A DNA stretch of 28,390 nt, taken from NCBI GenBank assembly GCA_048885925.1, contig JBHLLG010000035.1:1-28390 (forward strand). Reading direction: 5' to 3'. Origin of the DNA: Candidatus Hermodarchaeota archaeon (GTDB taxonomy: Archaea; Asgardarchaeota; Lokiarchaeia; Sigyniarchaeales; SOKP01). This document shows positions 1-14,148 of the stretch, one piece after another. The translations under genes were made by a program, and so were the position numbers. Every line of letters begins with the position of its first letter. Position 1 is the stretch's first letter. Below the pieces are notes generated by a model. It was given only the letters and a program-made list of their open reading frames with translations, ran no database searches and had not been told where the DNA came from.

Positions 1-1240
1 GAAGATCTAAGGATCCTTGATTGCTCACACTTTTAAATAAGTATTTCACTTGAAGGGGTAAAATTCATCTCGGGTCCTTGGACTAGTACATTTTTTGCTG
101 ACCAAGGGGCAGAAGTAATAAAGATAGAAATCTGAGTGCAATTCGCACTCCATACTATAACCTCCACCCTTTGGTGAAGCCTTTCGTCTTTTTGTCCTTT
201 ATGATAAAACTATATTTCCATTATTCTCTATTCTAAATAGAGGAAAAAAATCGGTTTCACTTGACTTAAAAAAGGAAGAGGGAAAGAAAATATTTAAAAA
301 GTTAGTGGAAAAATCTGATGTATTAGTAGAAAATTTTGTTAAGGGAACGATGGAAAAGTGGGGATTAGGTTATAATATCTTAAAAGATATTAATCCAAGA
401 CTGATTTATGCTAAAATTTCTGGTTATGGTAATAAGGGTTTAGAAAAATATACTCAGAAAACTGCATTCGATATAATTATCCAAGCGGAAGCGGGAATAC
501 TCGATGCTTTCGGTTTTAAAGAAGGACCTCCAAAATTACCTATAGCAGATTATACAGCAGGGCATATTGCCGCTATTGGGATTAGTCAAGCACTATATTA
601 TAGGGAAAAAGCCGATAAAGGTCAATTTATTGATATCTCAATGCATGATATTATGTTTGCTTTAAATATAAGAGCACAGGCCAGAGAATTTATACCAAGA
701 GCTAAAAATGTTGATGTTGCATCTAAATTTCTCCCAGTTTATAACCAATACCAATGTAAAGATGGTTTAATTGTCTTAACTACCCTTACAGAAAAACAGT
801 GGATTAGATTATGTGAGCATGTTTTAAAAAAACCAGAACTACTTAATGATGCTCGATTCGGTAACATAATAAAAAGATTTGACTATATTGATTTATTTGA
901 TAAAATTATTGAAGATTGGTGTAAAAATTTAACTAGAGATGAAGCAATTAAGCAATTGGAAACCGTCAGAATTCCGTGTGGTAAAAATTTGCGAATTGAT
1001 GAAGTTCATGATCATCCTAATCTTAGAAAAAGAGGAATGTTATGTGATCAATTTGATTTTAAAAAATTTGGGGTGGAAAAAGCTACGATCCCAAATCGCT
1101 TAGTTAATTTTTCAGATACTGTTGGATCTGTAGAAACTCCTGGACCAGAATTTGGTGCCAATAATGAAGAAATTTTCTGCAATTTATTAGGGTATAGTAA
1201 GGATGATATTAAAAATTGGAAGGGGAAAAAAATTATCTGA
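1..1240 (+). CDS. Family III CoA-transferase (CaiB/BaiF), 5' end outside the window, split into three exons (<1-28, 62-129, 161-1240)
   Basis: Joining the exons gives EDLRILDCSQFISGPWTSTFFADQGAEVIKIEPPPFGEAFR...NRGKKSVSLDLKKEEGKKIFKKLVEKSDVLVENF, matching the CaiB/BaiF N-terminal consensus (LD.S..(L/I)(A/S)GP, AD.GAEVIK.E.P, NRGK(K/R)S..LDLK, DV.VENF). Downstream are ISGYG and PIADYTAG (catalytic Asp). The product is 391 aa within the window. The ORF track (305-1240) covers only part of exon 3. Confidence 0.92.
29..61 (+). other. Putative BHB-type mRNA intron 1 (33 nt, contains in-frame TAA at 34-36)
   Basis: Central helix GCUC(23-26)/GGGU(56-59), 3-nt bulges ACA(27-29) and AAA(60-62), intron stem C30-G55, U31-A54, U32-A53 plus AAGU(39-42)/ACUU(48-51), exon-exon helix 6-16/72-82. 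Cutting after the 2nd bulge nucleotide (after 28 and 61) gives tgc-tca-caa-ttc-atc = CSQFI in frame. Confidence 0.82.
130..160 (+). other. Putative BHB-type mRNA intron 2 (31 nt, contains TGA at 133-135 and shifts the frame)
   Basis: Central helix AUAG(124-127)/CUAU(155-158), all Watson-Crick. Bulges are AAA(128-130) and AAC(159-161). Intron hairpin GAGUGC(134-139)/GCACUC(145-150); exon pairs G123-C162, A122-U163 and 102-109/167-174. Canonical cuts after 129 and 160 give gaa-cct-cca-ccc = KIEPPP and restore the frame of 305-1240. Confidence 0.88.
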
Positions 1241-3183: not shown

Positions 3184-4848
3184 TTATCCAACTAAGCTCC
3201 ATCCTTTTGGTTTTGCACGAGAATATTCAATTCTACCCTCGCCCTTTAAGGTATCAATCTCTTTTTCAACTTCATTATGAGAAAAACCTTTTTCTACAAT
3301 CCCATTAATGAATTCTCCTTTAGTAGCTACAAGTTTTTTTACCCTAAGATACTCAATTATGACGTCTCGTAATGAATCTCCAGCACTCACTTTTTCTTTA
3401 GTGGGTTCTTGTTCGATACTAGAAGGAAGAACAGCTCTTAATTTTTCTTTATCTGTTATAATTGGTTCTTCTACAACCATATGTTTTACTTTAGTTTTTT
3501 CAACAGGTATTGGTTCCTCAACTTCGATAAGCTCTTCTGAAACTTCCATTTCTTCTTCTGGCAGGCTATATAAGGGGTAAACTATTCGTTCATAAGTTAC
3601 CGATTTTTGAGTCTTTAATAGTGCTAATTCATCTAATATTTCGTTCTCTGAATAACCTGAATCTGATAACTTGCTTACCAATTCTTTCAAATATCCCTTC
3701 TCTAATAAAAATTGGAATATTTCTTCTCTCATAGTGGATGGTACTTCTTTAATTTTACCTAGTACGTCAATTATCTTTTCTTTTTCAGCCAATTGTATTG
3801 CAGGTATTTCTATTTGAGTTTGTATATCGAGAGGTTGTTTTTCTCCCCATTCAAAATCAGTAAGAAATCTTATTGCCCGATCATACCCTCCAAATATTAT
3901 ATTTTTCTTATTTTCTTTTCTATCCAACTGATAACATATATGTTTGATTGAAGTACTAACTTTTGTTTTCCACTTCAATTCGATATCTGTAGAATTAAGT
4001 GTTGGATTATGAAACACTTTTAAGGACCCATCCGCGCACCCAGCAACAATTTCATTTGCTTTATCACCATCAACATCTTCTACTAATAAGGATAAAGGTC
4101 TTCCACCTTCTATTAGTATCTCCTTTATTAATTCTCCTTCTGCCTTAAGAATTTTGATAGTGGAATCATTAGCACTTAATAAAATTTCGTTGAATCCATC
4201 ATTAGTAATATCACCAATTTTAATGTCATTAATCTGAGTATGAAAATCCTTTTGCCAAATTATTTCGGGTAATCCATCCTTAAATCGAACTAATTGTACT
4301 AATCCATTTCTAGTACCAACAAGTAATCCAAAAATGGGTACTTCTTCATTAGGTAATTTTAAAAATCCAAGTGTGCAGACGGTAACCCATGAATCATAAT
4401 ATAATATAAATTTTGGTTCCTTTGCCTGAATATTATCAAATATTTTTAAAGTCTTATCTTCACTTCCAAAAATTAATTCGATATTTCCATTTCGAGTAAA
4501 ATCTCCAGCAGTACAACAATTAATTCGCTTTTTAGACTTGTAACGCATTAATCCTACTAGTTTTTTCTTTTCTGGATTTAATTTTAAAACCATGAAATTA
4601 CCATCACCCGAACCAACTAAGACTTCATCACAGCCATCACCATCAAGATCTATGGGATAACTACATCGAATCCATCCATCAAAAGCTCTATCATCAACAA
4701 TGTTCATTGTTTCATCCATTAAGTATAGAATTTTATCATGCCCTCCAAAAACTAAAAAATTTTTCTCTTTACAACTTAAAATTGAACAGGTTAAAATTGC
4801 GTCGGGGCATTCAAACATAAGATTTAGCTGGAAACGTTTTCTAATCAT
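3184..4848 (-). CDS. FG-GAP-like beta-propeller protein with two C-terminal winged-helix-like domains
   Basis: Repeats DLDGDGCDEVLVGSGDG, GDFTRNGNIELIFGSEDKTLKIF, GDITNDGFNEILLSANDSTIKIL, DVDGDKANEIVAGCADGSLKVF, with FGGHDK/FGGYDR at the ends. No signal peptide. Two similar helical units MREEIFQFL...GYSENEILDELALLK and LRDVIIEYL...GFSHNEVEKEIDTLKGEGRIEY. Confidence 0.75.
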   Translation of the reverse strand: MIRKRFQLNLMFECPDAILTCSILSCKEKNFLVFGGHDKILYLMDETMNIVDDRAFDGWIRCSYPIDLDGDGCDEVLVGSGDGNFMVLKLNPEKKKLVGLMRYKSKKRINCCTAGDFTRNGNIELIFGSEDKTLKIFDNIQAKEPKFILYYDSWVTVCTLGFLKLPNEEVPIFGLLVGTRNGLVQLVRFKDGLPEIIWQKDFHTQINDIKIGDITNDGFNEILLSANDSTIKILKAEGELIKEILIEGGRPLSLLVEDVDGDKANEIVAGCADGSLKVFHNPTLNSTDIELKWKTKVSTSIKHICYQLDRKENKKNIIFGGYDRAIRFLTDFEWGEKQPLDIQTQIEIPAIQLAEKEKIIDVLGKIKEVPSTMREEIFQFLLEKGYLKELVSKLSDSGYSENEILDELALLKTQKSVTYERIVYPLYSLPEEEMEVSEELIEVEEPIPVEKTKVKHMVVEEPIITDKEKLRAVLPSSIEQEPTKEKVSAGDSLRDVIIEYLRVKKLVATKGEFINGIVEKGFSHNEVEKEIDTLKGEGRIEYSRAKPKGWSLVG

Positions 4849-13995: not shown

Positions 13996-14020
13996 CATTA
14001 TACAAAAAGTTATTGATAAT

Positions 14021-14095
14021 AGGCCCGTGGCCCAGACTGGATAAGGCGGCAGCCTCCTAAGCTGAAGATCGGGGGTTCAAATCCCCCCGGGCCTG
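14021..14095 (+). tRNA. tRNA-Arg(CCU), intronless, CCA not encoded
   Basis: Acceptor stem AGGCCCG(14021-27)/CGGGCCT(14088-94), D-loop with GG, anticodon loop CTCCTAA (CCT at 14056-58), T arm GGGGG-TTCAAAT-CCCCC, discriminator G. Confidence 0.96.
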
Positions 14096-14148
14096 TTATT
14101 TCTTGTTTTCGAAACTTTTTATATAATATCTTTTTTTTATTTGAACTT

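Follow-up and report, generated by a model that had tools for sequence, protein, structure and literature searches.

Introns bounded by a motif of the bulge-helix-bulge (BHB) type were reportedly found in the precursor messenger RNA of the cbf5 gene in Crenarchaeota by Watanabe in 2002 and by Yoshinari in 2006. The elements described here are two inserts of this kind within a gene for a family III coenzyme A (CoA) transferase, located at the 5' end of a 28,390-nucleotide stretch of DNA from a Candidatus Hermodarchaeota archaeon. This stretch, called the window below, is the entire contig C35 of the genome G000 (3.9 Mb, 29% G+C, 181 contigs, 95% complete). In all likelihood both inserts are BHB introns that would be removed from the messenger RNA (mRNA) by the transfer RNA (tRNA) splicing endonuclease EndA and the ligase RtcB, giving a continuous CoA-transferase frame, and comparison with related genomes suggests that the genus very probably splices some of its mRNAs. 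Excerpts of one article (Yokobori 2009, PMC2738675) state that as of 2009 archaeal mRNA splicing by the tRNA endonuclease was confirmed only for cbf5, in Crenarchaeota, that the cut in cbf5 falls between the second and third bulge residues and that most cbf5 introns have a relaxed motif. The Asgard introns are like those of cbf5 in being short, in having a protein-coding host and often a relaxed BHB, in their cut position, in their patchy presence among relatives and in that they can split a codon. Unlike cbf5, they have an Asgard host and lie in CoA-transferase, GTPase, JAMM, MFS, aEF-2 and CO-dehydrogenase-like genes. A single genome has several such genes, one gene holds two introns, and one gene family has introns at two different positions depending on the species. 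Splicing of cbf5 was shown by cDNA and in vitro cleavage, whereas the Asgard introns were identified by sequence comparison.

Other systems also bear resemblance to the inserts. In the HAC1/XBP1 splicing of eukaryotes, which does not involve the spliceosome, a protein endonuclease cuts two stem-loop sites in the mRNA, and the exons are then joined by a ligase that is either of RtcB type or a tRNA ligase. The likeness lies in mRNA splicing by an endonuclease and a ligase with the frame restored or changed, but the HAC1/XBP1 nuclease is IRE1 and not the tRNA splicing endonuclease, its sites are a pair of 7-nucleotide (nt) loops, and the process is regulated by stress. Translational bypass elements, known from T4 gene 60 and as the byp elements of a yeast mitochondrion, are likewise inserts of a few tens of nucleotides that break a frame without destroying gene function. 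However, bypass elements are not removed from the mRNA and depend on take-off and landing codons that match, while the Asgard inserts show a split codon and a covarying exon-intron helix. With the BHB introns of archaeal tRNA and ribosomal RNA the inserts share the motif, presumably the enzymes, and similar sizes, and G000 is rich in tRNA introns. They differ from these in having an mRNA as host, so that the motif's exon half also has to encode protein and splicing must come before translation. Asgard tRNA genes are described as intron-rich in a preprint whose accessible portion mentions protein-coding genes only for synteny (bioRxiv 10.64898/2026.10.13.758758).

The CoA-transferase gene and its orthologs

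The window begins inside the CoA-transferase gene, which lies on the plus strand. Frame 1 is open from base 1 up to a TAA at 34-36, a second open piece runs over 62-129 towards a TGA at 133-135, and a long open frame in a phase differing from frame 1 occupies 161-1240. An earlier sequence-only reading had described an N-terminus interrupted twice, by 33 nt with a TAA and by 31 nt with a TGA and a frameshift, on either side of an exon at 62-129, and the sequence does read in this manner. The parts of the gene and of the two predicted motifs are as follows.

1..28, plus strand: exon 1, partial; phase 1 at its end, where a Gln codon has its first base; alignable to the N-terminus of orthologs without inserts
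23..26, plus strand: intron 1 BHB central helix, 5' strand (exon bases GCUC); pairs with 56-59
27..29, plus strand: intron 1 5' bulge (ACA); predicted cut after 28
29..61, plus strand: intron 1, 33 nt; in-frame TAA at 34-36; missing at this exact spot in 28 of 37 distinct orthologs, present in 9
30..55, plus strand: intron 1 inner helix and hairpin; 30-32 pair with 53-55 and 38-42 with 48-52; loop AUUUC
56..59, plus strand: intron 1 BHB central helix, 3' strand (intron bases GGGU); geometry read base by base, with two G-U pairs
60..62, plus strand: intron 1 3' bulge (AAA); predicted cut after 61
62..129, plus strand: exon 2, 68 nt; encodes a conserved stretch common to all orthologs
124..127, plus strand: intron 2 BHB central helix, 5' strand (exon bases AUAG); pairs with 155-158
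128..130, plus strand: intron 2 5' bulge (AAA); predicted cut after 129
130..160, plus strand: intron 2, 31 nt; TGA at 133-135 and a frame shift; missing at this exact spot in 20 of 37 distinct orthologs, present in 17
134-139 with 145-150, plus strand: intron 2 hairpin; loop AAUUC
155..158, plus strand: intron 2 BHB central helix, 3' strand (intron bases CUAU); geometry read base by base
159..161, plus strand: intron 2 3' bulge (AAC); predicted cut after 160
161..1240, plus strand: exon 3 with the stop codon, remainder of the family III CoA-transferase (Pfam PF02515); open in all orthologs

Exon 3 matches the Pfam profile CoA_transf_3 (PF02515) over positions 50-366 with 258.7 bits, so that about 49 profile positions are missing upstream; the N-terminal stretch common to all orthologs is provided by exons 1 and 2. 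The PIAD stretch lies within the open frame of exon 3, in keeping with the intact remainder of the gene proposed from the letters. The best NCBIfam matches of exon 3 are CoA-transferases of this family, yet all equivalogs fall under their cut-offs and no substrate was therefore assigned. Neither insert has a further copy anywhere in G000.

A search of 40 related genomes gave orthologs in 13 that belong to the same genus, at 73-83% identity (open frames of 356-407 codons), and a scan of public genomes added more. The near orthologs come from Promethearchaeota, with a few carrying other Asgard labels, so that the organism is an Asgard archaeon, as had been suggested. Counts below refer to 37 distinct congeneric orthologs; L062, with a frameshift elsewhere in the gene, was treated separately. 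Neither insert is present in 18 of the 37, both are present in seven, the first alone in two and the second alone in ten, counts which exaggerate independence as the sequences are kin. Insert 1 is 32-35 nt long in the nine orthologs that have it and insert 2 is 30-31 nt long in 17, each at the identical site. Because of these lengths and of the stop codons inside, the inserts could not be translated through.

The 18 uninterrupted orthologs cross both sites without a gap or an extra residue relative to the junctions predicted in the window, at which base 28 would be joined to base 62 and base 129 to base 161. For both introns the junction seen in these orthologs coincides with a cut after the second base of each bulge, which was the cut predicted to restore one frame. 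The junction of intron 1 can equally be written one base rightward, since positions 29 and 62 are both A. When the gene tree is computed from coding sequences with the inserts removed, at least six changes of state are needed to explain where intron 1 is present and at least ten for intron 2. Since the intron-2 copies can be aligned with each other, we read intron 2 as an old intron that was lost precisely many times, with gains also possible.

Base pairing at the exon-intron boundaries

In the unspliced transcript, the bases that close the upstream exon would pair with those that close the intron to form a 4-base-pair (bp) helix with two 3-nt bulges on opposite strands. EndA would then cleave after the second base of each bulge, and RtcB would ligate the exons and probably circularise the intron. 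The resulting mRNA would encode a family III CoA-transferase in a single uninterrupted frame, whereas translation of the unspliced RNA would abort at the stop codons found early in each intron.

Pairing was assessed in each ortholog that carries an insert. All four pairs of the central helix form in seven of nine instances of intron 1 and in 14 of 17 instances of intron 2, with three of four pairs in the remainder. Within the intron 1 helix a U-G pair becomes U-A in L010 and L011, and the intron 2 helix occurs as AUAG/CUAU, GUAG/CUAU, GUAG/CUAC and GUGG/CCAU. Four pairs at a fixed register are met by chance at 2.6% of genome positions, or at 0.41% once the adjoining helices must each contribute their first pair as well; both introns pass the stricter test, with a joint chance of about 1e-4 after allowing for two and three equivalent registers. 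In the alignment of intron 2, 87.8% of cells are paired, compared with 26-54% for slid partners, both bases have changed in seven of 14 pairs, and not one of the 500 shuffles attains any of five measures, although these covariation figures overstate independence since the sequences are kin. Paired cells amount to 95.6% in the central helix (helix 2) and 86.8% in the inner helix (helix 3), where both partners have changed in six of the eight pairs.

The exon side of the helix behaves in a corresponding way. The exon tetramer at site 2 is GTAG in 15 of 17 intron-bearing orthologs as opposed to 5 of 17 intronless ones, and that at site 1 is GCTC in 8 of 9 as opposed to 8 of 25. The tetramers are thus fixed only alongside an intron, as pairing with the intron predicts. 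Exons 1 and 2 of L001 and L004 differ by four synonymous changes over 32 codons, against about 11 predicted from the gene as a whole. Such a paucity of synonymous differences in species with both introns is consistent with a motif that depends on exon bases.

Candidate enzymes are encoded in G000. EndA is found on C22 (7600-8217) as one frame of 205 codons with catalytic and N-terminal domains (PF01974, 101.7 bits; PF02778, 33.8 bits), and RtcB on C12 (PF01139, 569.6 bits). That these are the enzymes acting on the inserts, and that splicing is efficient, we infer.

Several observations weigh against splicing at a BHB motif in this gene or qualify the evidence for it. The outer exon-exon helix is poor at both introns: in intron 1 it is interrupted, with four of five positions pairing, and in intron 2 it has 1-2 bp and 76.5% of cells paired, the second pair failing in 8 of 17 sequences. 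Unconstrained minimum-energy folds of the two segments of the window contain no BHB, and folds constrained to one lie above the optimum by 3.4 (intron 1) and 0.5 (intron 2) kcal/mol. In eight of the nine intron 1 orthologs the BHB fold costs 1.4 to 7.0 kcal/mol beyond the optimum, and the unconstrained optimum holds the whole central helix in 8 of 17 intron-2 and 2 of 9 intron-1 orthologs. A second (beta) subunit of EndA was not detected in G000 with PF01974, PF02778 or tblastn, in a genome that is 95% complete and in which a divergent beta may be missed; Asgard EndA is of the two-subunit, broad-specificity type in excerpts of one paper (PMC5829648). Among public runs recorded as RNA none was found to contain the window stretch, and no spliced read, circular intron or peptide was seen. 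The first codons of the CoA-transferase lie upstream of the contig edge, and the kinship of the orthologs has been mentioned above. Lastly, a loose scan of the genome for BHB geometry with frame restoration gave 4592 candidates, no excess over the 4521-4582 of the decoys, and strict scans gave no clear excess either (for example, 863 loci against 811-836), which means that the motif alone does not mark intron sites. The background in these scans derives from tandem genes and short open stretches.

As the optimum folds are not of the BHB kind, per-instance pairing, covariation and constrained folds were used as evidence instead. The motif in the window is a relaxed BHB and not a canonical one, with weak outer helices. 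The succession of helix, 3-nt bulge, 4-bp helix, 3-nt bulge and helix proposed earlier was borne out for the central helix, the bulges and the inner helix, while the outer helices had been overstated.

Candidate introns in other protein genes

Further introns of the same type were looked for in G000. Four more cases came from split paralog alignments, with junction peptides tested against the paralogs, and a fifth from comparison with 800 kb of a congener.

C12 62467-62497, minus strand: intron in a Ras-family small GTPase gene, 31 nt; carried by 2 of 17 orthologous loci
C15 18539-18569, minus strand: intron in a JAB/MPN (JAMM) protease gene, 31 nt; carried by 4 of 23 orthologous loci
C41 10871-10903, plus strand: intron in an MFS transporter gene, 33 nt; carried by 2 of 13 orthologous loci
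C2 56851-56880, minus strand: intron in the aEF-2 gene, 30 nt, in the G domain, with an in-frame TAA; 6 of 19 informative loci carry it and 13 lack it (loci L156-L175)
C6 5548-5581, plus strand: intron in a Prismane/CO-dehydrogenase-family gene, 34 nt; also in G002

In all five the central helix has four of four pairs, as it does in each of the six G000 introns compared, and intronless orthologs join at the BHB cut sites; since the MFS and aEF-2 cases were found through a filter that requires the helix, the helix is not independent evidence for these two, whereas the ortholog junctions are. Compensatory changes occur in the central helices of the GTPase and JAMM introns and in the hairpin of the CO-dehydrogenase-like intron. 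Unconstrained folding gives a 5' bulge followed by a helix of 4-5 bp in four of the five, and a 1-nt bulge instead in the GTPase fold. The exons on either side of the GTPase intron correspond to adjoining parts of the Ras profile (1-34 and 38-157), and those of aEF-2 to adjoining parts of the GTP_EFTU profile (2-35 and 49-187). The aEF-2 gene is 85-95% identical within the genus, and exon 2 matches TIGR00490 with 578.6 bits. Open frames of the CO-dehydrogenase-like gene are cut short at the intron site in 2 of 17 covering loci, and the junction could be read in five.

Other species of the genus hold introns at positions where G000 has none. The CO-dehydrogenase-like gene of G005 (L228, C79, approximately 3607-3716, minus strand) has a different intron of 31 nt, seven codons downstream of the G000 site and absent from G000. 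In G013 (L170, C82, gene-strand 881-909), an intron of 29 nt lies in another small GTPase gene, adjoining that for EF-2, and G000 is without it. The total comes to nine intron positions in seven protein genes within one genus, with cut sites that agree with the junctions to the base. The earlier proposal that the lineage splices mRNAs is strengthened by the five further genes of G000, aEF-2 among them. In the genome-wide search for BHB-bounded inserts that had been suggested with that proposal, scans by structure did not exceed decoys; alignment to paralogs and a congener yielded the five genes.

The number of intron-bearing genes was approximated from 576 ortholog-grade comparisons with 800 kb of G006. 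Four intron-bearing genes of G000 and none of G006 were found in this comparison, and three of the four were known beforehand; because the stretch was known to hold these three, only the C6 case counts for an estimate. The split-alignment method misses in-frame introns, for which a separate comparison was added. Examination of the genes neighbouring 175 loci brought one new intron case. As a rough estimate, about ten protein genes in G000 carry such introns, and fewer do in some congeners. In the genes examined from the other sampled genera of the order, no such introns were found.

A number of candidates were rejected. Other matches in the comparison with G006 (C8, C2 37939 and three in G006) had no convincing motif. 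Most matches of the paralog search (C31, C45, C5, C62) are tandem genes homologous to a fused paralog, each with a ribosome-binding site and ATG, and others are ordinary coding sequence for GTPase C-termini (C14, C30, C2 23974) or shadow frames of low complexity. The introns are also not copies of one abundant element, as no other genomic copies exist and the loop motif GCAWWTCGC occurs 28 times compared with 17-39 in shuffled-order controls. In HdrA-like and MvhD-like genes, an in-frame TGA stands at a Cys of a Cys-rich motif (C23 near 12409 on the plus strand; C47, C5, C11 and C31 on the minus strand). Paralogs have Cys where the TGA stands; these were not retained as introns, and the TGA codons are probably selenocysteine codons. 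A small-GTPase gene on C21 (minus strand, gene-strand approximately 31140-31185) has one in-frame TAA where the sequence is conserved, accompanied by neither a frameshift nor a convincing BHB; this may reflect a pseudogene, a sequencing error or recoding.

With ARAGORN, an intron was called in 19 of 31 tRNAs of G000. Several of these calls look spurious (introns of 146 and 1335 nt), and there are only 31 tRNAs in all. Many tRNA genes of G000 were probably missed owing to non-canonical introns. The window itself carries a tRNA-Arg (CCT) gene without an intron at 14020-14096, its sole match in Rfam or ARAGORN.

Other explanations and implications

The alternative that fares best, though we regard it as improbable, is that the inserts are removed from RNA by some other activity, either a nuclease recognising the conserved inner hairpin or a self-cleaving fold. 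The weakness of the outer helices and the finding of only one EndA subunit would be accommodated by it, and the inner hairpin loops are alike in several of the introns (A-rich or U-rich pentaloops closed by C-G). However, the 3-4-3 spacing and the base-exact cut sites at nine intron positions are what EndA requires, and an Rfam scan of the window gave a single match, a tRNA. Relaxed motifs are cut by broad-specificity EndAs, according to the parts of two articles that treat them (PMC5829648, PMC2738675).

Still less probable is translational bypassing, in which the inserts would stay in the mRNA and be skipped by the ribosome. Short inserts that hold a hairpin, with a stop codon close behind the 5' boundary, do resemble bypass elements. 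Against this stands the codon split by intron 1, C in one exon and AA in the next, such that the unspliced sequence does not contain the conserved Gln codon at any point. Neither insert has take-off and landing codons that match, and bypassing does not need a covarying exon-intron helix with BHB spacing.

A gene in decay, or one that makes a functional product from exon 3 alone with the inserts as neutral debris, is very improbable. Standard gene calling does give only a truncated frame from 305. Yet the median ratio of nonsynonymous to synonymous substitution rates (dN/dS) is 0.083 among intron-bearing pairs (126 of 153 usable) and 0.079 among intronless pairs (56 of 105 usable), and as it is equally low with and without introns a pseudogene is rejected; the relaxed selection downstream that such a gene might show was not found. 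All 36 of the 36 reading frames built without the inserts stay open over 387-392 codons with no other stop or frameshift, and the protein sequence of exons 1 and 2 is retained in all intron-bearing species. Furthermore, the inserts occupy the same sites in nine and 17 species and show covariation, and six species have aEF-2 interrupted by an insert of this type.

The inserts were also compared with DNA assembled from public runs. A contig from run X1 has window positions 1-116 without difference and extends 68 nt further upstream. Insert 2 is covered by DNA contigs of three studies (X1, X4, X8) and insert 1 by those of one run, free of joints and with no letters omitted or added, though one of the runs may be the assembly's own source; the ortholog inserts in other metagenome-assembled genomes (MAGs), which are located mid-contig, are the stronger argument. 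An artefact of assembly or binning at the contig end, conceivable because the gene sits at the contig's first bases, is contradicted by these contigs and MAGs and has next to no probability.

A full-text literature search, with supplements and some journals outside its scope, found no paper on BHB introns in Asgard protein genes. Given the cbf5 precedent the mechanism is not new in kind, while novelty lies in the lineage, in the genes and in how many cases there are. It is possible, though on balance we doubt it, that BHB micro-introns (29-35 nt) form a living population in this genus, with gains and losses in protein genes including essential ones such as aEF-2. The two CO-dehydrogenase-like positions in different species, along with the at least six and at least ten changes of state in the CoA-transferase gene, point in this direction. 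If this were true, the tRNA splicing machinery would serve these close kin of eukaryotes as a general system for splicing mRNA, and some means of keeping ribosomes off unspliced transcripts would be implied. Introns might then also spread by transposition, as has been proposed for tRNA introns in Thermoproteales.

If the introns are spliced as predicted, gene callers would truncate or split such genes, which would affect metabolic reconstructions of Asgard MAGs. The intron cases would supply exact junctions that can be tested. RNA processing would have to finish before some mRNAs are translated, which bears on the separation of transcription and translation, and the gain and precise loss of mRNA introns would be open to study in a prokaryote near the eukaryotic stem.

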